Assembly: GCA_004022145.1 (NCBI GenBank)
Contig: RCNU01000003.1
Source: Paecilomyces variotii
Lineage: Eukaryota
DNA: 64,000 nt
Direction: 5' to 3' (one strand)
Made by a program: the position numbers and the translations under genes. Of the stretch, positions 2,630 through 20,404 are shown one piece after another. The notes below the pieces were generated by a model. It was given only the letters and a program-made list of their open reading frames with translations. It searched no databases and was not told where the DNA came from. Every line of letters begins with the position of its first letter. Within the stretch, counting starts at the first letter, position 1.

Positions 2630-4528
2630 CTAGATCGCCTTTGTCCGGGAAAAAAGACTGCTGTACACAGCGTCGACGACAGGTTGAGCGGTAATCTGGC
2701 GACCACCAAAGAAACGGCCGTTGAGGCCCTTGATGGCATTCTCGCCACCCTGGACTCGGTCGAATTTGAGGTAGATATCGCCCTGCGAATGAGGATCTAG
2801 AGCAATGTGAACAACGTGGCCATATTTTTCTTCACACTCAGCGCGGACGTCATCCTCCAGCTCCTTGACCCAGCTTTCACCTTCTTCCCTGTTGAAATGT
2901 TAGCACATCCTACCTAGCAATTGACGACCAATGGGCAAAGTGAACTTACTCGGCAGGGTCAAACATATTACGCAGCAACACACATCTGCTCGCCATGTTG
3001 ACATTGACAGGCAATGGCTTGGTCTCGGTCTTCGGTTTGAGAATCTTTGCTTTCTCATCGGCGGAGGGTTCAGGCTCATCTGTTCTGGCAAGTTTCCTCA
3101 TCAATGCATCTCTGCTATAGTTGTTGAAGTTCACACCAGCAACATCCGTGTCATCCAGAGCACTGGCGCCGCTTGTACCCTTGTCGTCTCTGCCACCTGC
3201 ACGATCGAAGTTGCCACCGGCACCGCCAGCGTGAACACCGCGGCCTCCTTGGCCAGAGAATAATGAACCCTGGTAACTTGGTTGGTTTGCGCCCTGGCCT
3301 TGGAAACGCTGTAAAAGGTTCGCGGTCGATTCAGGGGTGAACTTATCGTTGCCAAGGCCAACACGAATCGGTCGACCAGCAAGATCAAAGCCATTCATCT
3401 TCTCCAGGGCCTCACGAGCTTGGTTAGGGTCACGGAACCTGTGATATATTGTTAGTATTGTTCTCATGTATGAGGAAGAACGGATTGAACCTACTGGACA
3501 AATCCATATCCTCTGCTGCGTCCGGTCTCGTCCTTCTGTAGTTGGACAAATTCGAGCTCACCGAAAGGTTCAAAAACGTTCTGCAGATCACTCTCAGTGA
3601 TACTGAAATGAATATTACCAACATATAATCTATGGAACGGAATAGAGTTATGGTTGCCGCTGACAGTGGGATTGCGAGCTTGTCGGTTCTTTTCGGCTTC
3701 GGTCAATTGTGCAATAATAGGGATCCCTAGAAGCTTCTGGCCGGTAAGCTGGATAGCAAGGGGAACTGATTCTTCGTCTTTAAATTCGACATAGCCCACA
3801 CTATAGAGATCATGTTAGTCGTATGAATACCATGTGATTGACGCGAAATTAAGAACTTACCCCTTAGAGCGCCCGCTCACACGATCCTTAACGATCTGAG
3901 CTTCCTTCACAGGCCCAACCTTCTCAAAGAAGGCAATTAGCTCTTTAGTCCTGAGACGAGCGGCCAACTGCTGCACAAAGACGGTACGTCTGTCACGCTC
4001 ATCCTCGGTAAGTTGAGGTTCTGCTGGAGTCCTGCTACGACGCCGTGGACTAGGGCTGCGTTTACGGTCACGGTCTCGACGGCGCCTATCATCGTCACGG
4101 TCATCTCTCCGCGAACGTCCTGAAGGACGGTAGTAACGGTCATCACGAGGGGAGCGAGAGCGAGTACGAGCACGTCCTCCACCACGGTAATAGTCACCCC
4201 CAGAGCGGTAGTCATCACGGTCGCGGCGAGCGCGGCGTCGGTCGCTGTCGCGGCTCCTGCTCCTCTTTCTGCTTCTATGGCTTCCGTTAGCACTGCCATG
4301 CTCGCTTCTCGGACTCTTCATTTCCTCGTCTCCATCGGCATCTCGTTCACGTCGGCGATCGCGACTGCGGTCTCGTCGTCGGCGATCTCTGTCCCGAGAA
4401 CGATCGCGGTCCTTGCGGTCACTGGGGTCGGCTCTGGAATGGTCATCGCGATCGCGGGAATCTCGCGATTCCTGAACTGAGGGAGCTGCTGCAGATTCGA
4501 GAAGAGCTTCAACGTCAAGACCTGACAT
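2630..4528 (-). CDS. RBM39/Pad-1/Rsd1-type RNA splicing factor (RS domain, two RRMs, C-terminal UHM-type RRM)
   Basis: Four exons, about 4528-3861, 3800-3495, 3438-2950 and 2888-2630, joined in frame by GT-AG introns. N-terminus [10 protein letters not shown] is followed by an RD/RS-rich region. RRM motifs: '[23 protein letters not shown]', '[23 protein letters not shown]' and '[35 protein letters not shown]'. Stop TAG at 2632-2630. Confidence 0.93.
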
Positions 4529-4808
4529 GGTGACAGAATATCGGACAGAACGCGACGAAGCACAGTACGAGTACGGATGGGGTGGTTGGTCACTTTGTTT
4601 CGTTAGAGCGGCAGGACGGACCCGGGTCTGGCTAGCGAACCCTTCTTTGATAGTGAGAGACACGCCTGGAAGACAGTTTCCAGCGTCGTCTCGATGCTAC
4701 TGAGTCAAAAGTCGATGCACAGGGGCGTGTCGCCTGGGGATGGAAGGCTGCGTGCTGTGCTGTGGTTGCAAGTCGAAAGACTTTCTACGGAGACGGAATC
4801 GGTCCTCG

Positions 4809-6664: not shown

Positions 6665-7816
6665 GGTGAGATCTGGTAAAAAGAAGAGCAAGGACAGCCA
6701 GTAGCTTCGGGATTTGGAGAGTAGTAGATGCGTAGAAGATGTGGTGGTAAACAGTCCTCACAATCGGAGAACTGTGACGGGTTTCCGCAAAAGATGCCCG
6801 CAAGGATCGAACATCAGAGAGAAGGGACAACGAGGGGGGTATTTCAATAATAGCTCGATGTGAGTCATGATGCTGCTAATGAGCTGTCCATCCCCCTCTG
6901 CTCCCTAACTACGCTGCACATTGGATGCAAGCGGTCAACACCGCTATCATCTGCCGTATCATTAGGTCGTCCATGATGCCGCTTGAGATAAAAAGAGAGG
7001 CCTTTTCTCCACACTGATGAATTGTGCAGATTCCTATTGGGAGTGGGTGCAGAGAACCGTGTCGACGGCCTATTCGACATGTTGTCGCCCTAAAGCGGTC
7101 ATGCGCGTGGTTTAGTTGGGTATCGCGTTCTTGACCGCCAGCCCGAACACCATCGAGGTACGACCCTCCGTTGGAAAGGCCTCGCAGCAAACTTCTGCTT
7201 GTCTCCCAGCCATCTATTTTGCCGATGCTGGAAGCCGTTATTTCGGGAACGGGCCGTTGGCTGCATTTGTATTGTGACTACAACTGGGGTTCTGCAGATC
7301 GCCGTGCTTATTGCCCTTCGGAATGGGGTTCTTCCAGTGTTGCTGTTGTTCGGCCCTGTTGTTCACGATCGATTGACAACAATTGCCCCAAGGAGATGTA
7401 ACGTGGATAACATAGGGGAGATGGCTAACGCCCAAGCTTAACACGCAAAAGGAGTACTATCCCATTAGAGCAAGAGTTTCATTATCAATTAGGCATATAT
7501 CTAAGTATGTATCCAGACAACCGTCCTTATTACCTGAAGCTCACAGCTAAAGAAGAACGCCATGCCCACGCACCCAAACGACACTCGTGGATGCTCTCAG
7601 CAGCAATGACGCTATATACTTGGAAGCGGCAGATAGACATAATGGACCAAGTCCGCATATGTCGCCTCTTCAAACATGAAAGCGAACCACCTCCCAAAAG
7701 CGAGCGTACCGCATTAATGAGCGCAACAATAAATTACATAAATATCTTCGGAGAGTTTTGAACATCCACATAAAATACATCAGAAGGCCAGCGACCTCCA
7801 TTCGAGCTGCCCGTAC

Positions 7817-9079
7817 CTACTGGGTTTTCACCTCCTTCGGAGGCGGGGTCTCGAGCTCCGTACCAAAGACTCTATCCCAGAAACGACTCGTGACACCAAA
7901 GCCGTTGTCGAAATCGGCAAAATGGTGCTGGAGATGATACTTCTTCAGCTCCTTGTAGTAAAGGGGGAGGCTAAGGACCAAAGTCAGTATAAGAGTTCCA
8001 AAGGCAAGAAACATCGTATGGTAAGTGACTTACTTGCGATGGTGGAGGAAATAGTGCGTCATATCGTAGCAGATATATCCAAAGATACCACCACAGTATA
8101 CCATCACAGCCGCGTACCAATTGTAGGAGAAAACGGCATGGGCTAGCTTGTAAAATGGAGTGGCAAGAATGAGGAACAAAGTTGGCGGCATAACAAGACG
8201 ATACTTGTCCATCGGAAGGTAGTGGTGGATGCCATGCAGGACAAAGTGGAGCGAGATTCCAACACGGTTATCGGGCAGGTACCTGAAATCAATTAGTGAA
8301 TACTTCTAACGACGAAGGAAGCGCGGACGGCCATACTTGTCAATGTGGAACAGGAACCTATGCATTCCATACTCGACCAGTGTCCAGATACACAATCCCA
8401 GAATCCAGTACGCGGCAGGCTCGACCACGTTCGTGAACCCGGTCGAACCGATGAACGTGCCATACGTAACGGCCGGGAACCAAATAATTGGCACGCAGTA
8501 CCAGGCAGTCTTGGTGAGCGGCTCCAGGAAGTTCCCGAACAAAGGCGCAGATTCCCCTCCTCTGTAATGGCGAGGACGGTGGACTTGTTGCAGGTAAAAT
8601 TCCTTGGTGAAACCGCCGTACCACAACTGCGGGAAAAGCGGCTTATTCAGATCGAGAAACTTGTGAGTGCGGTAATCTGCTACCGGGTCCGTATCCACAG
8701 ATAGGTCCTCTTCCCTAGACATGCCAGTGGCATAGACAGGTCGCGAGTCAACTTGGCCGTTTGTTTGTTCTACCCCCGTCGCCGGCGCTCCTCCATTAGC
8801 CATGCTCTTCGCGGTCGATTCCGATGAGACGAAGCCCACGAGGCATTCGTCCAAGATCTCATAAGCAGCGTCCGTGTGTTCATGGGATACAACATCGCGC
8901 ATGATCTCCGACACATCTTTTCCGGCGTATTCCATGATCAGATCTCCGCCACCGGGGTGATCGTCCACGAAGGAGGTCACATCGTAGACCTTGGAGCCCA
9001 GCGTGACATAGCAGGACTTCTCTGTGTTGTGCGCCGCGACCTCGGCCGGTGTGAACGTAGGCAGGACCTTTCCGGGCAT
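7817..9079 (-). CDS. scs7: Sphingolipid fatty acid alpha-hydroxylase with N-terminal cytochrome b5 domain
   Basis: Cytochrome b5 heme motif 'FVDDHPGG'. Di-metal His boxes 'EYGMHRFLFH', 'LHGIHHYLP', 'YDMTHYFLHH' and 'KYHLQHHF'. Three exons with GT-AG introns near 8337-8283 and 8033-7971. Confidence 0.95.
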
Positions 9080-9275
9080 GGTTTTGAGTAAATATCGGCG
9101 GAGATCTTCGACGCAAAAGAGAACAGACGGGACTGTATGGTTGTCTTGACAGTTCTGGGTCAGGACCAGCTCGTAGAAGAAAAGAATCCAGATATGTCGC
9201 CAAACCCGAGAGTTCCGACGATGAAAAGAAAATTGTTGAAAAAGGGGAGAGATCGGATGGCCGATGAATCGAGGA

Positions 9276-9285
9276 GTGGCGTGAG
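9276..9285 (-). promoter_or_regulatory. Putative sterol regulatory element (SREBP/SrbA-type) in the scs7 promoter
   Basis: The minus strand reads CTCACGCCAC, matching the TCACNCCAC SRE core, about 200 bp upstream of the scs7 ATG. scs7 is a known Sre1 target in fission yeast. Confidence 0.4.
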
Positions 9286-9712
9286 GGCCTCGAAGGCGGA
9301 CAAATAAGTTTAGATTGCGGGTATTAACCCAGCACGGGACCGTTTGCTGGGACCGAAGATTGCTGCCTTACTGGTTGGTCCGACAAAGGGGTCAAGCTGT
9401 CAATGGAGTGTTGGTGGCGATTATAATGATAATATTGTACTCGTCCACAATTTGATCAGATGGATAGTCGCTCTCAAGGGTGCAGTGACGAGGTGAAGGA
9501 ATCCTGGACGATCTAACCATGCATGTCTTGCCGCAGAGGATATCAATACATTCAGCTCATAATAGTTGCTAATACATTGTTATTACGGGACCCAAAGCGG
9601 GAACAATAGAGTAATCCACGGGCTTTGCTGCGGGATCACGCCGTTCGGCATCACGGGGAAAGCAGCCCTAAGCCCTAACTCACATCCAGATTGAGACATG
9701 CCCGGTGACCTG

Positions 9713-9837: not shown

Positions 9838-11513
9838 CAGGGCGATCTCAGGAGACGCTAATTAATCCCGTCCATCATCCATCCCACAGCCCCGTCAATC
9901 TGTCTAGTTAGTCTAACTCGACGCTATCGCCGCTCTCTCCAACTTGGAACAGATCGCTTCAAGGATCTTCTTCTTCTAAGCGATCCACCGGGTGTCGGAA
10001 CCTCTAATTTATTCTCCTAGTCAGTGGATCGTCGCCTCATTATTCTCTAATCAAGGTTTCTGGATTGACTGATTATTTACCCAGGCGAAGCAGGTCCGAT
10101 GCAGGAATCACGATAGATAGTTCACCAACAGCGATATAGGCCCTTTGATTGGCCATGCTTCCAAACCCACTGTTTTGGAACTGGAATGTACGCAGATTAC
10201 CGATCAGAAACAGAGCCGGTTTCCCATTGTCGTCTTCAATCCGATGGGGCACGATCTACGAGTACTCCGTACAAGGGTATACAGAAACCGGCAGATGAGA
10301 CAATGAGCCTTACAGGATAACGGTAATAAGAACAATAATAATAATAATGAATGCAGTTGAACGAGCCATATGTGGGCCTGTTCACACATGCCGGCCAAGG
10401 CTAGAGTATAACTAATTGCCGTCTTGGCTACTTTCTGATCATCAAGACCGAAGCAAAAGAGCTGGTCCACAGCTTGCGGACAGATGCTTTGAGGTGCGGA
10501 CTATGGGCTATAAACAACTGCTGTACGCAGTGTACGGAGGTCTAGGAGATAATTCCCCTCCGCTCGTCGCATGGATCAAGTTTCAGCGCAGAAATGGTCA
10601 ACAGACGATTATCGCCCCTCGTGCCTGGACGCTTTGCTGAGTTAACTCAACCCCAAACGTATCCACAGGGGCTGCTGCTTACCCTAGCCTATCTGCCTAG
10701 CTTCATCTGGGCCGCGACACCGCCATCTCTTTTCTCTTCTCGGCGTCCTGGCGTCTTGTCAGCAAATTCCTGAAATTTGAATATCGAGATTAACTCAAGC
10801 ACTGGATGCAAGCACTAGCACTACGGTCGTGCAGCATAGGAGGGCATTTGCTAACGGTTAGCTACTGAAAGATCGATATAAGATGACCGACCATCATGGT
10901 AGGAACACAGGAGTTCTGCCGGAAGACAGGGACCCAGATTCCGGGCTTTCATACTAGTCCGTCCTGTCGGATAGGCTAAGATTACAGCCGGAGCTCTAGA
11001 CCACTTCCGTACGTACACTTTCAGAAACAACACAGCTCACTCGTGCGGAGAAGCTGATGAATACAGGGGGAAACAGTCAATTCTGCAATTACTGCTATTT
11101 ATGATATATGTGGTCGTATTAATTGCTCGCGGATCGATCCTGCGATCCTTTTTCATGCACTCATCAACCAATCGATCCTGGGCTTGTTGATCGTCGCGTC
11201 CCCTCTCTCTGCGTCGAGGTCGTGCCTCCGAGTGGCCAAGATTGATCTCGACCGTTGCTGCGGCGTACGCCAATCGCTTAGCCGCCAGCTCATCTGCAGA
11301 GTGGAGAGTCAATTAACTTAATATCGCTAAGTTGCTGCCATTAGGAGCCAGCTGTCATTCTCTATCTGCAGTAATTAACGCCCCTAGTATTCCATTGTTG
11401 TTAGCGTCACTGCGGACGAGGTCATTGTTTAAGATCACTACTACCCTTCCTGTGTCTTCCCCTCGGGACCTTCTTTGTGCCAATCATCCTCAAGAGGCAA
11501 GCAGGAACCCAAA

Positions 11514-12923
11514 ATGTCCTCCACGTCGTCGCCAGTGCCGGTAAATCGGCTGATTACTTATCTCCGTATGCTTCAACGCTCCAAGCCGGGATTGCCTCAT
11601 GGCCAACTCGTTTGCGTGTCTGCGTCCCACACGATTACCACCACAGAGGCTCTGCTCCAGCTTGCTTCTGCGGTCGGATCACAGATCGCCATTCTCCAGA
11701 TCCAGGCAGACATAATCGACGATTGGTCCGACGAGACTGTGAACCAATTGATGGTGCTGGCAAAGACATATGGATTCTTACTATGGGAAGGCGGAAGGAT
11801 TCTGAATCCGTACCTGAGCTCTCTGGGAAAACGCGAGTCAGAATCTATCGGACAGAGGAAAGAGATCATAGAATGCATCCGAAGGTCCTATACTAAGGGC
11901 AGGCTTAACATGGCTTCATGGGCGGGCCTGGCAACTGCCTGGGCATCTGGGGTAATGGCCGAGAAGCAGGAAACGGATATGCTAATCCCAACGCTCAAAA
12001 ACGCCGCTCGCGAGACAGTTTCCGTGATAGCGCAGACTATTACTACTGAGATTACGGCCGAGGGCACAAAGGGTGACCACCAAACACAGGATGATCACCA
12101 GTTACCTGATAGCTTTGTGGACCAGGACGAATCAGGCGACGGTGGGCTTACTCCTAGTTATGCCATAACTAAAGATCTTGGAGATGTCATGCCCCTTCCA
12201 CCAAGGAAAGCCTCCACTATATCGCTCACGCAGACCATCACCCAACACACTGAAACCTCGCTCTCGTCGCCTTCAATCATTGAGCGCCGGGACTCTGTGG
12301 AAGATGTACTACTGCAGTTCACTATCACCGGGGACGATATCCCTCCCCCACCGCTGCTCGTTCGTGGACTAGTCCTCTGCCTGCCGTCTTTGAGGCTTAG
12401 TATTTTCACTCCGGAGTACAGACGGAGTTGTCTGGCGGCTGCGCGGGCCAATCGCGATTTCGTTATTGGCTTTGTTTCCAAGGAACCGTGGACGGTCATT
12501 TCCCGGACAGATGATATACTTGATGTGCACGAGGTCAGTGCATCGGAAGCCCACAGCAGCAGGGAAGAAGCTGGTGGACGCGACTCAGATGTGGTTCCCG
12601 ACTGGTTCATTGTCTTCTCTCCCATTACCGAGATTGCCGCCAATTCGTCCAGTCACGAGGAATCCGATGCCCGAGAGCACCGCTCATCTAATCAGCGAGG
12701 AAATGGCACGGAAGAGGTTGACTGTCTTGCCAGTGGAACACTGCCGGAATCTGGACCAGCTACACAAAGTTCTCAAGCCTCTCGCTTATCTGCTATTGTT
12801 CAGCAAGCGATGGCCGTTCGTGACGAAACCAGCAAAAAGGAAGCTGGCACTGCCCGACAAAGCGGACGCAAGCCGAACAGAACCAACATTCTCTACATTC
12901 CCATTGTAAAGCTTGGTCTATAA
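11514..12923 (+). CDS. Orotidine-5'-phosphate decarboxylase-fold protein, predicted catalytically inactive (469 aa, intronless)
   Basis: Aligns by eye to Ura3/PyrG in three segments: 'VCVSASHTITTTEALLQLASAVGSQIAILQIQADIIDDWSDETVNQLMVLAKTYGFLLWEGGRILN', 'RGLVLCLPSLRLSIFTPEYRRSCLAAARANRDFVIGFVSK' and 'DWFIVFSPI'. The KTHxD and DxKxxD motifs are replaced. Confidence 0.82.
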   Translation: MSSTSSPVPVNRLITYLRMLQRSKPGLPHGQLVCVSASHTITTTEALLQLASAVGSQIAILQIQADIIDDWSDETVNQLMVLAKTYGFLLWEGGRILNPYLSSLGKRESESIGQRKEIIECIRRSYTKGRLNMASWAGLATAWASGVMAEKQETDMLIPTLKNAARETVSVIAQTITTEITAEGTKGDHQTQDDHQLPDSFVDQDESGDGGLTPSYAITKDLGDVMPLPPRKASTISLTQTITQHTETSLSSPSIIERRDSVEDVLLQFTITGDDIPPPPLLVRGLVLCLPSLRLSIFTPEYRRSCLAAARANRDFVIGFVSKEPWTVISRTDDILDVHEVSASEAHSSREEAGGRDSDVVPDWFIVFSPITEIAANSSSHEESDAREHRSSNQRGNGTEEVDCLASGTLPESGPATQSSQASRLSAIVQQAMAVRDETSKKEAGTARQSGRKPNRTNILYIPIVKLGL

Positions 12924-14860
12924 GCCTGAGGTGCCATCCGCCTTCCTTTTTTTCTCTCGCTTCGAGTATATATTTCCTTGACCGACCGACTAGACTACCC
13001 AGTCAGGGAGCCTTAACGACATGGCCGGCTGATGATATCTTTTGTTTCCTACCTTGCGTCTCGGCGTTTTTATTTCCGATTTATTATAGCAAATATCGGA
13101 ATAACTTTTGAGGTGATGGCCTCGACTGATGCGTGATCTCGGACGCTATACAACACCATTAAAAGTCTTCTTAGTGGACTCACAACATTGACTGCATGCC
13201 TGCGTTGGGAGGAATATTATTTTCGGGAAGGAAATCGTGAATAGAAAAGGGACGGCATCGTTATTCGATATTCATTGTATATCATGTATGCCTTCGAGGT
13301 AGATTTGGGAGGGTTTCCTGTTTCGTCAGATATTATCATAGGCCGGTCAATAGTATATCGTCTTCATCACATAGTATTTGATTTGAGGACGAGAATTTCA
13401 TGCTACGTTCAACAATGACTGAGAACTCCGCCGGGAACTCCGTAGCTAGGTAGGCAATCTCCGAGATGTATCAATGTCTGAAGTGCATCCATACTGGCTA
13501 TCAGCACTAGTAACCAAACCATATATAATGGAGGCCCCGTCCTATGTATCTTCATGACTGGAAGTAAAACATGGAGAGGAATCTGTTGTTTAAAAACAAC
13601 GCTAAACAGGCAGAGGAGCCACCAGACTCACGTGACCTGGAGGTGAGCTGACTTACGGTCTCTCTTTGGAGTTTGACTCCTCTTAGTTAACTAACTAATT
13701 ATAACAGGTATAGGATTGTTGATATGTATTGTCATCGGGTGTGGGCTCATGGGGGCCTTCCATGGTATCGGTATTGACGGTTGGAGATCGAAGACCTCAA
13801 GGAAGGAATCTTCGCTCTGATTGACGTGCATGGGCGCTGCTATGCTTCATGTCTCCAAGTTGCAGGAAAAGTAAGGGTCAAGTTGGCCAAGGCGTTCGAA
13901 GCCAAGGAGACGACCGTCACCGGGCTCACTTCACGACTGGCAGAGCTGCTCACCGCAGCAGGATTCAAGAGATTCCTCGAAAAATATGCTATGTTCATGT
14001 TACCGTTTATCACGATCATAAGAAAAAGGGTTGGAATCCAACATCTTCATTGGAGAAGTGAGTCTCGGAGTTCCAGTGTCTGCTATGCCAATCGCGGCAA
14101 TCATGGGTATACTAGCTGATTCGCTGTTGGTTACCTAGTATATAAGTAAGTCGTACAGACCAGATCCTGGTGAGATACTTATCTAATCCATTCCAGGAGC
14201 AGCAATACTGCTCCTCTGCAACTGTCCTGAGTTATCTCAACTTGTTTCTTGTATCTCGTGGCTGCAGGACTCTCTTCTAAGTCGGCCTGGTTTCTGGAAC
14301 AGAATCATGTAAGTGATCAGAACAATAAATTGGCCACCAAAAAACTGAGAAGAGCATTAGCAGAATCACGTTACAGGTTGTGATGTCGCAGAGACTGGCT
14401 CGAGGCCTGGGTCCTACAACATTCGTAACACCGTGTGGTATCTCTGCAAGAGTAGAATAGCTGCATCCGGTGGGGGATGCTGAATAAATCATCACGTGAC
14501 ATCGAATTGTCATCGGTCTGCGGCGGCGATGCTTTCTCTTCCCTAGGACTGCTTGGCCTTATATTTGGAAATCGAATTACTCTATTGATGCCATGAGATT
14601 ATGATATAGCCCCGCTTTATTCTTTCAACCTGCCGCTCAAGGATTCACATTTTGGAAGCGTGTTACTAGTCATGACATCCTCAACTGAGTCCGACGATCA
14701 ACAGCTTGCATCTGCGTGACACATATTTTCTATTCTTTATTTCTGGCCCATTCTTGAAGACACTATTGATGTGTCTACAAAACTGAAGTGTCTTAATGTC
14801 ACGACGAGCACTGCCGCGTCCGTCTGCAGTTATCTTGAGAGACAAATTATTTTAGACATC

Positions 14861-16559
14861 ATGGACACGGAGTATCCACCACTTCCTTCAGTCTCGAAAG
14901 AGTCGACAGAGAAGAAAATATTCTCTTCACGGGTGTCAACTCCTGCAACTGTGCAGTCCGGGACGTCAGAAGAAAGTTCCTCTATCACAAATGGCTTTCG
15001 GGCTCCGGGTGGCGCATCGTCCAGTTCAAAGACTAACAGGAAGATCATCTCCAGTCAAGGAGACGTTATCATTGAATATAAGGACCGTGATACAAATGTG
15101 TCAAATGAACCAGAAATCTATTATCAATGGCAAGTTTCGAGTGAGGATCTCACGAGACATAGTCCGTACTTCGCGGCTTTACTTGACCCAAACAAATTCT
15201 ACGAGGGTAGAGCATTCATGGAAAAGAAGACGGAAATATCACAGCTCAGGAAAGAGCACGAGTATTCGGCCCGTATTCATGCAGATGAGCTGCCTGTCGT
15301 GAATCTAAGTGTGGAGCGTCTGTCTAGGAGGTTCCGCGCGAGCGCTGTGGATGTCTTCCTGAGGATACTCTGTGCTCACTCTCTGGATGATCACGCCCGG
15401 GCAGACTTTGATGCTGAAATAAAGCACCTCTCCACATCTGTCGTGGCCAATCTAATCGAAATATCTGACTTGCTGAACTCTCCCGATATTGTGCGAGACA
15501 CGCTCAAACGATCAGGATATGCGTTTGGGAAAGGGAAGATTCCACTTTTTAAATTCACTTCCGCCTTGTTAAAATACAGCGAGGAGCGAGTTCGACAGAC
15601 AATATTCATTGCGATGTATCTAGAAGAGCATAATATCTTCCAGACCCTGACGCATACGTTAGTGCTTATTGGCTCAAAGTCATGGATCAATGGAGTTGGA
15701 ATTCATGATCCGGAGAGCCCACGCTGGTGGTATTTACCACATGGAATGGAAGGTGATATACTCATTAAACATCCATTTACGCATTTTTCCTAAGTACTAA
15801 CTATGTCTGTGCTATTCAGAGGAGTTATACTACCGGCGTCAGTGCGTACTTAACACGATTACCGACTTGCAAGCTCACTTCCTTCGTGTCTATGGAGCAC
15901 TCGAGGACTCCAGAGATCCGAAGCCTACTGCTTCAAACACACCATTAGGATCAACCACTACATCTGCATCTCGTTCTCGTCCGTTTCAATGCCGTTGGGG
16001 CTTCAGCAACTCGAGAGCATGTGACGCATTCCATCTAGGCGAAATGACTCGCTTCTTCGCTATCCGTACGAAAACAATCTTCCTGGGTTCCACCCTAATA
16101 GACCCCGACTTTGATCTTGATCCCGAAGACGACTCTTCTGTAGACGAGGAAGGGGGCGCTACTCGTTCATTGATGGCGGGCCCTCCATCGGACATATCAT
16201 CCATCATCGCCTCCCTCAGACAAATTCCGGACTATCAGATAGATTCCAATCACACAGGATGTGGTATTCGCCGCCGCCTCCTGCCCGCCTTGGACGTTAT
16301 CGAGCGCTTCGTTGCCGACGGACGAGGCCTCCTGGGCCTGGTTCTGCGGTACTGGAAATCGCCCCCCGCCACGAATTCGATCTCCTGGATGGACCGGTCC
16401 CTCCGGAGGGCCGAGAGCGTGGATATACGCTACTCTAAAATCATTTCCCTCAACTGCAACCCTACCGGACCATTATACCCCGGCCCATTACCCCCTGGTT
16501 CACAAGAGGAAGATGCGCGGTTATTCTTCACAGCAAAGAAGAGGAACTGGGAATCTTAA
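14861..16559 (+). CDS. Conserved-type fungal hypothetical protein with BTB/POZ-like N-terminal region
   Basis: Two exons, 14861-15752 and 15820-16559, join as ..GMEEELYYRRQC... The segment 'IISSQGDVIIEY..WQVSSEDLTRHSPYFAALLDPNKFYEG' resembles fungal BTB domains. Confidence 0.75.
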
Positions 16560-17737: not shown

Positions 17738-20404
17738 TTAGCACATTGTATCTCCCCACATGTAGCCAAGTTCGAGATCGAGGTTTGTTGACGATGGGAA
17801 GAAAGATCCGGTCAGATGACCTGTAGCAGGGTCGTATGGCAGGTAGTCGTCATATCCGCTGCGAATGGGGGGACATTTTTCAGGCTTGATAAAATCCGCC
17901 ATGTCCGGCTGTTCCAAGGAATAAGGGAAAATCGGAGCAGGAGGAGAAGCGTGATCCATAAGCGGACAGGAAGTTGAGTCAAAGCTGGAGCTAGCAGAAG
18001 AAAAGTCTACGGCCGGCATGTCGTTAATAACAGCTTCATCATTGCATGGAAGATCGTTGACCTCGACACCAACGTGAGGCGCCAAGCGGCGAAGATAGTC
18101 ATCGCAGAGCTTCCACGCTCGAGATGCAGCTGCACTGAATGTCGACATGTGGTGGAGCCACTCAATTCCGGTCTTTGCTGCCTTCGAGACAGTTGCCGCC
18201 TTGTCTGGAACATGCTGTGCCCTAAACGACAATTCGAGCAGCAAAACCGTGGTAGCCTGCATGATATAGTGTAGCATACACCACCATGGTGCAATCTTGC
18301 ACAGCAGAGCCGAGTCTGGCGCGTCTGGCAGAAGCCTCAGTAGGCGACACGCGGAATCAACACATTCAGCAGCGGTCTTGCTGCAGAAATCATAGGACTT
18401 GCTACCATGCGGTCGACTAGCGTCTAACCGGCAGAGGCATGGTCGAGTTATGGCGATCTTTGTACTGTAGAAAAGACATGCCAGGCTCATTCTCTGACCC
18501 AGAAGAGCCTGTGACATCTGGACTGATGTGAAATCGTATGGCTCTGGGAGGTTCAGGAGCCACGAGTCGGTCTCCAGCATGAGGCTTTGAATCATAAATT
18601 CAATGCTGGGCCAGGGCGATTGGACAGACTCAGCACTGTACAGCTTAGCATTGACCCTTTTGGATATTGAAGTAAGAGTCGAGAGCTGTAGGAAGTAAAG
18701 GGACATGCTTGGAGCCAGGCCTTTCAACCATTCAGTAGAGCCGACTTCTGAAAGCTTCGCAGAGGGCGGCTCCATGCTGGGAATTTCCAACTGCGCCGGA
18801 CTTGGCGTGTTGGAACAATCTGACATTTTGTCATGAGTATACGAATTTCTGCGAGAAGAGTTACCGATAAGTTGAGTCACTTCTTCCTTTTGGAAATCGC
18901 ACTCGTCGAACGGAACTGGCAGTGGGGTTGTGCAGGTGCTGTCCACTATGCATGTAGGTCGACCGGTCATCACGCTAAGCAGGTGATCGATTGTATAAAG
19001 GGACCACCAGACACGGTATCGGATTTCTTTCGAGGTGTCGGATGTGGAGGAACCTACGTTCCTCAGATGCAGGCCGAGCGCCACAGCCGCACGAACAGCG
19101 TTTCCACAAAGCTTCCAGGCTCTGTCGAATCGGGAATCAGAATTGTATCTGTGTATGACAGTTATGTTGAACATACCTGTTTATCTGGTCCATGGCTAGC
19201 AGGTAAAATGACGCTAGACCTTCAACCTGTATTTGCTGGAGATCTGGATGATCAAAAAGCTGATCATTCATACTAAGCATCCTAGCTCTCGCAAAATATA
19301 GCTGATGATCGTCTTCATTGTCTCTCCAATCAGCACGGGAAATGTGGGAATACTTCGCAGCAATCGCGAAGATCAGATTCAAAATAGCCAGCCACTTGTT
19401 TCCAGGCTTCACAGAAGGTTGATTGAAGAAGAGCTGATACTGTGAGATGAATGTGGAAATACCGATTATAGGAAATGAAGGGTGAACCGAAGCCAAGTAG
19501 GCATTGAACAAGCGGGCAGCGACGTCCCGAGACGGCATGCCATATGGATCCACTCGGGCTGGAATAGTGATCTCCGTATCATCTAAATAATAGCTCGAGG
19601 AAGCAATGGAAGGTTCAATTGACCCTTCATCTTTCGAGCTGGCTGCTGGTGAGTATCGTTCATGGGATGGACTCTCCTGTTTAACTTCTGATTCGTGGCT
19701 GACTTCCCTACTTAACTTTTGCAGCCAAGCAATTTCCGAGCTCTTTCCTATGTAGCCAGTGGCACGCGTCGTATGATCTCGATTGAAGTCTTCCTCAACA
19801 CGGTCAACTTCGTCAAATGACCCGACTGAAGAAGATCGGGATTGTGGATATCCGGAACTGGAGCTCCCTGAGTTTTGTCTGCCTCTCGACGTGGCCATGT
19901 GGAAGTCAGGGTGAAGTGACAAACGATGGGGAGATTCCTGGAACTGTTAGGCATGTACAATTAGACGGTTGATCTCATGCGTACCGCTGACATAGCACTG
20001 TTCATGAGCTGTTCATCTGAGATGCCAAAGCTAAGGCTCAATTTGCGGATGACGTCCTCGTATGCTTGAACCTTAGCCGAAAGACTGGCAAGCTGTCTGC
20101 GCGTCGTTATCAATATCAAAGTGTACTCGCATCAATCGCTCCAATCAACGAACCTCTTGGATTTCTCTCTCTTGCCATCTGTATAACAGCAGATGATGCC
20201 TGCCTCTCGACAATTGCGACAGCCAGATTTGTCACCAGTACATTTTGTTTTCCTCTGTCTGCAGGACTCGCAGGCACGGCGAACGTGTCGACGGTGAAAT
20301 CTTCCAGGGGAGCTGAAAGCAGCTTCTGCTCCCTCCGGAAGCCGGGGGATAGCCATCTTCTTAGTATTCAGACGGTCCTGATCATTTTCGGGAGAATGGG
20401 ACAT
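17738..20404 (-). CDS. Zn(II)2Cys6 transcription factor with fungal-specific TF (middle homology) domain
   Basis: Zinc cluster 'RACESCRQRKTKCTGDKSGCRNCREAGIICCY' followed by a coiled coil 'RQLASLSAKVQAYEDVI'. Middle region has 'AYLASVHPSFPII' and 'AVRAAVALGLH..EIRYRVWWSLYTIDHLLSVMTGRP'. Four exons with introns near 20153-20097, 19984-19945 and 19176-19122. Confidence 0.92.

Follow-up and report, generated by a model that had tools for sequence, protein, structure and literature searches.

The gene described here occupies positions 11514-12923 on the plus strand of a 64,000-nucleotide stretch of Paecilomyces variotii DNA (assembly GCA_004022145.1, contig RCNU01000003.1), the whole of which is called the window. 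Its product, a protein of 469 amino acids (aa; P0001), has the predicted fold of orotidine 5'-phosphate decarboxylase (OMPDC), the enzyme named Ura3 in yeast and PyrG in P. variotii, and an initial annotation had described it as an intact OMPDC pseudoenzyme with all catalytic residues replaced and an insert carrying sites of the protein kinase A (PKA) type. The open reading frame (ORF) of 469 codons runs uninterrupted from ATG to stop and is intron-free, the reverse strand over it is full of stops, and the start methionine and the C-terminus align with those of orthologues. The features of the gene and of its product are listed below in window coordinates; pLDDT is the predicted local distance difference test score of the AlphaFold2 model, and family counts refer to 120 members, namely 117 of the 120 homologues listed by the search described further on (the fragments P0090, P0092 and P0096 being left out) together with P0121, P0126 and P0133.

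11148-13418, plus strand: stretch covered by cDNA contigs of the X5 and X12 studies, the approximate extent of the transcript
11514-12923, plus strand: complete single-exon coding sequence of the putatively dead OMPDC paralogue P0001, 469 aa plus stop (ORF listing and translation)
11529-12032, plus strand: N-terminal half of the TIM barrel, aa 6-173, β1 to β4 with helices; pLDDT 91-98 except for loop 101-110; aligns to Ura3
11631-11633, plus strand: T40, at the position of Ura3 D37 (family: T 81, N 19, S 8, L 5, I 3, A 3, D 0 of 120)
11697-11699, plus strand: Q62, at the position of the catalytic K59 (family: Q 104, K 9, others 7 of 120)
11787-11807, plus strand: E92-G-G-R-I-L-N98, in place of the E-D-R-K-F-x-D catalytic loop (phmmer alignment)
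12033-12350, plus strand: long insert, aa 174-279, from the helix after β4 to β5, predicted mostly disordered (pLDDT 40-58 over 181-270)
12033-12059, plus strand: first insert motif Q-T-I-T-T-E-I-T-A ('TEI'), aa 174-182; T178, E179 and I180 invariant in alignment A1
12204-12254, plus strand: second insert motif R231-K-A-S234-T-I-S-L-T-Q-T-I-T-Q-H-T-E247, a basophilic-kinase site (R/K-R/K-x-S) with a stretch resembling a β-strand behind it
12285-12296, plus strand: RRDS, aa 258-261, a lineage-specific basic-Ser site (R258 14/120, S261 29/120)
12351-12629, plus strand: β5 to β7, aa 280-372, with PPPLLVRGLVLCLPS, DFVIGF and FIVFSP; second phmmer stretch; strands 285-290, 317-322 and 365-370
12636-12761, plus strand: variable, predicted disordered stretch, aa 375-416, at the position of the GQQY phosphate-gripper loop of active enzymes (pLDDT <50)
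12762-12914, plus strand: long helix aa 417-446, basic linker and last strand β8, aa 459-467, ILYIPIVKL (AlphaFold2 model)

The gene is transcribed. In two cDNA-based metatranscriptome studies, the contigs of X5 cover 11148-11479, 11551-11791, 11940-12703 and 12674-13418, and those of X12 cover 11283-11785, 11773-12245 and 12567-12792; no joint occurs inside the ORF in the contigs of both studies, and the upstream spacer at 10486-11028 has no contig in either. In these contigs the neighbouring genes carry poly(A)/poly(T) ends as well as spliced joints of the GT..AG and CT..AC kind, so the contigs derive from RNA. Two random-primed RNA runs, X2 and X4, cover the whole 5.4 kb, spacers included, and therefore show no transcription when taken alone.

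The structural evidence places P0001 among the OMPDCs. A phmmer comparison with all PDB sequences returned 41 matches, every one an OMPDC or UMPS chain, the best being yeast Ura3 (E 6e-10) in two collinear stretches (P0001 29-96 with Ura3 26-94, and 284-324 with 145-186). The AlphaFold2 model, built with 130 sequences (mean pLDDT 74.6, 217 residues above 90), is an OMPDC-type (β/α)8 barrel, with its eight strands in barrel order and a barrel pLDDT above 90. Foldseek searches with this model gave 31 top matches that were all OMPDC (E ~1e-9), and VIA-align superposed it on the yeast structure 3gdm (3gdm_B) with Z 21.3 and a root-mean-square deviation of 2.6 Å over 209 residues at 28% identity; the top 24 rows were eukaryotic OMPDCs, followed by archaeal OMPDCs at Z ~13. 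The uninterrupted 469-aa ORF of Ura3/PyrG barrel type recognized in the initial annotation is thus confirmed by the ORF listing, by phmmer and by the structural superposition on Ura3 that had been proposed as a check. In the proposed profile search, the Pfam score for OMPdecase (PF00215) was 13.1 bits, under the cut-off of 27, and the TIGR01740 score was likewise below its cut-off (15.7 versus 92.3 bits). A precomputed PF00215 match exists for 9 of the 120 relatives listed, and database names range from hypothetical through 'OMPDC domain-containing' to, in some cases, 'orotidine 5'-phosphate decarboxylase'; because the curated profiles stay under their cut-offs, most relatives are filed as hypothetical proteins.

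In OMPDC, K59, D91, K93 and D96 (yeast numbering) form the catalytic network, D37 binds the ribose, and Q215, Y217 and G234-R235 bind the phosphate; the titles of PDB entries (K93R, D91N, human D312N, K314A) agree with the catalytic roles. In P0001, neither the K59/D91-x-K93-x-x-D96 network nor the phosphate gripper and G234-R235 site is present. The phmmer alignment pairs Ura3 K59 with Q62, D91 with G93, K93 with R95, D37 with T40 and S154 with S292, and the yeast K93R, D91N and wild-type PDB chains diverge exactly at the positions of R95 and G93, while D96 falls on N98, two residues beyond the end of the alignment. The assignments Q62 and G93/R95/N98 made by hand in the initial annotation were therefore correct by this alignment. 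Across the family, the D91 position holds G in 84 and S in 32 of the 120 members and D in none, the K93 position R in 115 and K in one, and the D96 position N in 115. In ten active long OMPDCs, which served as the comparison set in the same alignment (A2), D37, K59, D91 and K93 are present in all ten and the N98 column is gapped. The pattern WE[GSCA][GS][RKQH] was found in 119 of 120 family members and in none of the ten active forms, and the DRK motif in no family member. The three orthologues L004, L005 and L006 from metagenome contigs (Penicillium-like, 407-418 aa) read W-E-G-S-K or W-E-S-G-K, with K at the K93 position, and have Q or E at the K59 position, where another such locus, L001, has K; D91 is absent in all of them.

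The phosphate-binding elements are missing as well. A search of the P0001 sequence for the GQQY and VGRG motifs found neither, and in the family the GQQY-like pattern GQ[QRKETH][YF] occurs in 2 of 120 members, versus 9 of the ten active forms, and the VGR-type pattern [IV][IVA][VA]GR in 0 of 120, which bears out the absence of QY and VGR motifs claimed before. Because the P0001 chain stops two residues past β8, it has no G-R phosphate site and no helix α-8, and since no member continues for more than 11 residues (median 3) past the xIPIV motif of β8, in which P463 is found in 120/120, this helix is missing family-wide. The claim that the OMPDC fold is intact while its catalytic and phosphate-binding residues have been exchanged is thereby supported; 'all catalytic residues replaced' is right as to the positions, but the change of K93 to R is a conservative one.

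The gene is not peculiar to the window. A word-index protein search with P0001 gave 149 homologues at E <= 0.001, the best 120 of which were listed; these are 35-84% identical and 299-510 aa long (410-510 aa for the 117 aligned), and every organism name among them is a genus of Eurotiales or Onygenales. The closest named relatives among the matches listed, at 84% identity, are from Paecilomyces lecythidis and P. variotii. An exhaustive search of cluster representatives gave 25 clusters at E <= 1e-30, and 43 columns of the alignment are invariant across 27 species of the two orders. Scanning of metagenome contigs revealed four distinct orthologous loci, all with intact single-frame ORFs (L001, L002, L003 and L007 are identical and were counted as one); L008-L013 were rejected as further dead copies, being ordinary active OMPDC genes or fragments.

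Comparison of these loci showed nonsynonymous differences per site (pN) far below synonymous ones (pS): 0.185 versus 0.661 for L004 and L005, with a rough omega of ~0.13, and 0.318 versus 0.733 for the gene in the window and L001. The neighbouring genes have the same order and orientation in L001, L004 and L006, and the upstream cytochrome-b5-domain gene and the downstream gene keep theirs in loci that are 35-50% identical in the OMPDC-like protein. In 55 pairs from 11 species, the median identity was 0.39 for the dead paralogue versus 0.73 for PyrG (p-distance ratio 2.2), and by these sequence distances the dead paralogue evolves faster than PyrG yet is clearly constrained. Taken with the homologues, the intact loci, the synteny and the cDNA cover, the low pN supports the view that purifying selection has kept the gene in both Eurotiales and Onygenales and that it is no relic in decay; the claim of a retained gene, and the dN/dS check suggested for it, came out accordingly. 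With its catalytic residues lost, purifying selection indicated and expression observed, the protein fits an operational definition of a pseudoenzyme in which inactivity is judged by sequence.

The most conserved stretch of the protein is the RKxS...TxTI....E motif inside the predicted disordered insert. With conservation measured as the mean top-residue frequency across the 120 family members, this motif (231-247) reached 0.90, with 11 of its 17 positions at 90% or more, followed by the TEI motif at 0.84, the catalytic-face loops at 0.69, the opposite-face loops at 0.69 and the helices at 0.63; the 92 low-pLDDT residues outside both motifs (aa 375-416 included) gave 0.23. R231 and S234 are present in 120/120, K232 in 111/120 (R in the other nine) and E247 in 116/120, so R231-K232-x-S234 offers an R/K-R/K-x-S/T consensus at a conserved site predicted, from its low pLDDT, to be accessible. 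Of the two PKA-type sites noted in the initial annotation, RKAS (231-234) is accordingly conserved, while RRDS (258-261) is not (S261 in 29/120). As the element is short, strongly conserved and set in a disordered loop, it may be a linear interaction motif or a strand that becomes ordered upon binding. An ESM Atlas search with the insert (aa 165-282) gave no usable match. A phosphoproteome study of Aspergillus nidulans uses R/K-R/K-x-S, a rule that the start of the motif fits, for calling direct PKA substrates, and it counts PyrABCN, an enzyme of pyrimidine synthesis, as a likely target of PKA in A. nidulans and yeast alike (PMC6495382). The protein studied here goes unmentioned in the main texts of the Aspergillus PKA phosphoproteome papers PMC6495382 and PMC7773993.

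The insert was found to be shared with active enzymes. Among the results of the exhaustive search were also proteins of 346-486 aa whose match to P0001 spans residues 33-325, insert included, and which have every catalytic motif (KTHAD, FEDRKF.DIGNTV, GQQYNTP and IIVGRG). Named organisms with such long active forms belong to Dothideomycetes, Leotiomycetes and Lecanoromycetes, and the best 120 of 2058 matches to one long form added Arthoniomycetes, Lichinomycetes, Xylonomycetes and others, all annotated as OMPDC; no Eurotiomycetes entry occurs among these best 120 of 2058. We take the long enzymes to be of the Neurospora pyr-4 / Trichoderma pyr4 type. Their insert, at the same site, reads S-T-E-I-S and R-K-x-S-V-V-S-x-S-T-T-I-S-x-x-T-E; among 84 long active enzymes, R207, S210, V212, T216, T217, I218 and E223 are each at least 90% conserved, and T157 and I159 of the TEI motif are nearly invariant. 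P0001 likewise has its insert between the DxK loop region and β5, with TEI and RKxS...TxTI....E motifs, and the spacing R, +3 S, +5 V/I, +10 T, +11 I, +16 E is common to P0001 (R231, S234, I236, T241, I242, E247) and the long forms. A motif pattern composed after both sequence sets had been viewed was found in 95 of 145 long active forms, one of 98 short forms and no shuffled sequence, and its site lay between the DxK motif and β5 in 90/90. The insert is of low confidence also in the AlphaFold2 model of the active long P0141 (pLDDT 47-65), and Y126, G129, W136 and G319 are invariant in the family members and the long active forms alike (A2). The insert with RKAS therefore cannot be upheld as a distinguishing mark of the pseudoenzyme, since active long OMPDCs have the same insert, motif and spacing.

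Three further proteins related to the long type deserve mention. In the gene models P0164 (1092 aa, Achaetomium macrosporum) and P0168 (1115 aa), an OMPDC of the long active type is combined with a Zn-cluster/Fungal_trans transcription factor; the OMPDC part stops inside β8 (..DIVI and ..DIII) and is followed directly by a partial Cys-rich DNA-binding motif. Both look like adjacent same-strand genes merged by the annotator and not like real fusions. P0163 (298 aa), an OMPDC from the long branch of Leotiomycetes and Sordariomycetes, has a short insert and F-E-D-R-E-F, with E at K93, but keeps GQQY and VGRG; it could be a further form with partial loss of function, or a sequencing variant.

The organisms that carry the dead paralogue have a different active enzyme. 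PyrG of P. variotii, A. nidulans, P. chrysogenum, Coccidioides and others is 274-290 aa long and insert-free, with all catalytic motifs; P. variotii PyrG (P0235) is 64-96% identical to the 40 sequences of alignment A3, 34 of which come from Eurotiales or Onygenales. The short type occurs also in Orbiliomycetes, Geoglossomycetes, Lecanoromycetes, Leotiomycetes and one Sordariomycete. Because short and long active forms occur in the same lichen genus (Heterodermia) and family (Teloschistaceae), though not so far seen together in one genome, both paralogues must be old. In trees built on insert-free columns from chosen rows (60 and 48 of ~470 sequences), monophyly was recovered for the short clade (100*) as well as for the dead family (96* and 100*), and the latter joined the long forms with values of 92 and 90, neither starred, in the Shimodaira-Hasegawa-like approximate likelihood ratio test, on a stem of 1.7-2.9 changes per column. 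The signature columns in which the family agrees with the long against the short type number 10, and those in which it agrees with the short against the long type number 3. A much more diverged OMPDC-like protein of 327 aa (P0153), encoded on an 85-kb contig and with no catalytic motifs and no Pfam match, still contains R-A-R-K-A-S-V-I-S-L-T-S-T-L-T-Q; in the tree a very long branch connects it to the dead family (95*, flagged for long-branch effects), and it may represent a second or earlier dead lineage.

Since Eurotiomycetes use a separate short PyrG and the insert is common to the long forms, the family most likely descends, as its dead form, from the long paralogue; taking the shared insert as a rare change, we hold this descent to be highly probable on the sequence evidence, and it is with similar assurance that we regard the protein as a dead descendant of a long OMPDC that still functions as a protein. 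In the explanation that we favour overall, and consider reasonably probable, Eurotiomycetes kept this dead OMPDC as a scaffold with a phospho-regulated motif. Catalysis in Eurotiales and Onygenales would be done by the separate short PyrG, and the long copy would have lost its ribose-binding, catalytic and phosphate-binding residues and helix α-8, and with them OMP decarboxylation and the canonical binding of OMP or UMP, while keeping the barrel and, above all, the T-E-I and R-K-x-S-x-I-S-L-T-x-T-I-x-x-x-x-E motifs. The barrel, probably a dimer by analogy with OMPDC, would serve as a regulator or scaffold and present a linear motif that is prone to form a strand and has an invariant serine of the basophilic-kinase (PKA/AGC) type. 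What was retained could then be a phospho-regulated protein-protein interaction, which might also be a second function of the active long OMPDCs; this motif-interaction mechanism is the tentative part of the proposal, possible but doubtful. With the ribose (D37, K59) and phosphate (GQQY, GR) ligands all gone, the role of 'nucleotide sensor' suggested in the initial annotation is improbable for UMP or OMP as far as canonical binding is concerned.

Several observations weigh against this explanation or temper it. As to origin, an approximately unbiased test keeps the tree in which the family groups with short PyrG (delta log-likelihood 2.87, p 0.44), and given this and the very long stem, the tree alone cannot fix the origin; nor do the best 120 of 2058 matches establish that active long forms are missing from Eurotiomycetes. 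As to the shared motif, the pattern was a post hoc one, and hidden Markov models of the two insert motifs made from the family only reached at best 13-17 bits against long active forms, none with E < 1e-3 at Z = 1e6; at Z = 254, the same two models gave E < 1e-3 for 8 and 1 of 145 long forms, and weak matches (E < 10) were found for 84 and 100 of the 145 long forms versus 1 and 2 of 98 short forms. The synonymous divergence is saturated in all pairs (pS 0.66-0.83), so the omega values are rough, the two finite ones being <0.2. The catalytic-face loops are no better conserved than those of the opposite face, which fits a scaffold without proving one. The 'dead' status is deduced from residue loss, and some chemistry remains conceivable in view of the arginine at K93, the lysine found at K59 in 9/120, and the retained H64, D66 and E92. 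Phosphorylation, the interaction role and the lack of OMPDC activity are inferences.

Among the other explanations, one close to the suggestion that the protein might heterodimerise with PyrG would make it a regulatory subunit. OMPDC active sites borrow D96 from the partner chain, and in a heterodimer with short PyrG through the canonical interface N98 would impair or modulate the PyrG site, with a kinase possibly exerting control. The barrel is well preserved, the loop at the D96 position (G-G-R-I-L-N) is conserved, with L97 in 120/120 and N98 in 115/120, and short PyrG is present in every checked lineage with the dead paralogue (11 species pairs). However, the dead paralogue changes ~2.2 times faster than PyrG over the 55 species pairs, the segment after N98, which reaches the partner site in OMPDC, is variable (pLDDT 62 for 101-110), and the most conserved element is an insert motif that short PyrG does not have. 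Complex prediction for PyrG (alignment A3) and the dead paralogue (A2) scored 0.63, and the control in which an unrelated protein replaced PyrG scored 0.69, so that this prediction speaks neither for binding nor against it. We regard such a subunit as unlikely. Slightly less probable again is a neofunctionalised enzyme or small-molecule binder, in which the pocket (W71, W91, GGR, T141, W143, C-L-P, W326) would have been remodelled to suit another ligand or reaction; the protein would then be no true pseudoenzyme. Family-specific residues located where the strands end C-terminally are indeed near-invariant (W71 and W91 120/120, G94 116, R95 115, W143 114, P291 116), and D66, D70 and E92 are retained; but all known ribose, base and phosphate ligands are lost, the gripper region is now variable and disordered, the equal conservation of the two faces gives the catalytic one no preference, and glycine and bulky aromatics in place of polar catalytic residues would rather suggest a filled pocket.

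That the gene is a decaying duplicate or an annotation artefact without function is scarcely credible. Its faster evolution than PyrG and its large predicted disordered parts would suit a relic, but the 149 homologues, the four intact metagenome loci, pN far below pS, the synteny, the 43 invariant columns in 27 species and the transcription contradict it. Just as improbable is a second PyrG isozyme that is still an OMP decarboxylase, for which the OMPDC fold and the database names of some relatives might be cited: D91 is absent in 120/120, K93 is found in 1/120, the D96 position is N in 115/120, and the GR and GQQY sites are absent. Moreover, pyrG mutants of Aspergillus and Paecilomyces are described as uridine auxotrophs and serve as markers, which indicates that no second active enzyme covers for PyrG.

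Under the favoured explanation of a retained scaffold with a phospho-regulated motif, a further and more speculative step can be considered, namely that the long OMPDCs of filamentous ascomycetes are bifunctional, combining catalysis with an ancient, kinase-controlled interaction motif in their disordered insert (R-K-x-pS, then a strand), and that Eurotiomycetes split these functions between paralogues. We consider this somewhat unlikely as it stands. If it is true, short PyrG would have kept the chemistry and the dead paralogue the signalling or assembly, the latter being a natural separation-of-function allele of the long enzyme (pyr-4 in Neurospora), and the motif could connect pyrimidine synthesis with nutrient signalling or with an assembly that includes other proteins of the pathway.

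The surroundings of the gene are as follows. A cytochrome-b5-domain gene lies upstream at 7800-9367 (minus strand), and its position and orientation beside the dead OMPDC gene are kept in L001 and L006. Between the two genes is a transcribed unit at 9878-10393, with a 65-base GT..AG intron at 10020-10084 seen in two studies. Downstream, a small convergent gene at 13643-14300 (minus strand) has a 54-base intron at 13989-14042 (CT..AC on the plus strand) in RNA contigs, where its poly(A) site shows as loose poly(T) ends at 13643 and 13661. Next, at 14720-16559 (plus strand), come two neighbouring long open frames of 357 and 252 aa without Pfam match; L004 and L006 have them conserved, likewise downstream of their orthologue. 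A gene for a fungal-specific transcription factor, with Fungal_trans in two ORF pieces, lies at 17738-19946 (minus strand), ~5 kb downstream, a proximity that could easily be chance, and a gene for an RBM39-like splicing factor with RRM_1 and RBM39linker domains lies at 2946-4696 (minus strand).

The pyrG/pyr-4 gene is the workhorse selectable marker of fungal genetics, and the present analysis links a protein of Eurotiomycetes with the long enzyme that is active in other classes, with a kinase-type motif in a disordered loop as the best conserved element of both. The dead copy also offers a clean genetic handle, since neither its deletion nor a mutation of S234 should cause uridine auxotrophy. 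Should the motif prove functional, OMPDC would have a non-catalytic role, and the family would be a worked example of the passage from moonlighting enzyme to pseudoenzyme after paralogue replacement. In the library searched there was no paper pairing orotidine or OMP decarboxylase with 'pseudoenzyme' and, among the matches listed, no description of a dead pyrG paralogue in Aspergillus, Penicillium, Paecilomyces or Onygenales or of a function of the long-form insert; the papers listed on pyr-4 concerned its use as a marker, and none of the phosphoproteome papers listed mentioned orotidine.

Compared with known systems, P0001 shares its fold and strand order with yeast Ura3 and the OMPDC domain of human UMPS (EC 4.1.1.23; PDB 1dqw, 3gdk, 2qcc; Z 19-21, 24-28% identity over ~210-220 residues), together with structural residues such as E92 (Ura3 E90) and the DFV.GF strand. 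It differs from them in the replacement of D37, K59, D91, K93 and D96, in lacking the Q215/Y217 loop, G234-R235 and helix α-8, in an extra 106-residue insert and a 42-residue disordered stretch, and in falling under the Pfam and TIGRFAM cut-offs. The long OMPDCs of Cryoendolithus (P0141), Sphaceloma (P0151), Phlyctema (P0160) and Pyrenophora (P0410) resemble it in insert site, in the TEI and R-K-x-S-x-[VI]-S-x-x-x-T-I-x-x-x-x-E motifs and in disorder, but keep all the catalytic and phosphate-binding motifs and helix α-8, whereas the dead family lost them all. The short PyrG of P. variotii (P0232/P0235) and A. nidulans (P0257) comes from the same organisms and fold family as the dead paralogue, but has all catalytic motifs and no insert, and forms its own clade (100*) with the short forms of other classes.

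Decarboxylase pseudoenzymes that regulate an active paralogue are known in the antizyme inhibitor, a homologue of ornithine decarboxylase, and in the 'prozyme' of trypanosomatid S-adenosylmethionine decarboxylase. Like the present family, these are dead decarboxylase paralogues kept under selection, but they have other folds and pathways and, unlike the dead OMPDC, known partners. Dead enzyme paralogues as such are known; a dead OMPDC tied to an active long form through a conserved kinase-type motif would be a new variation on them.

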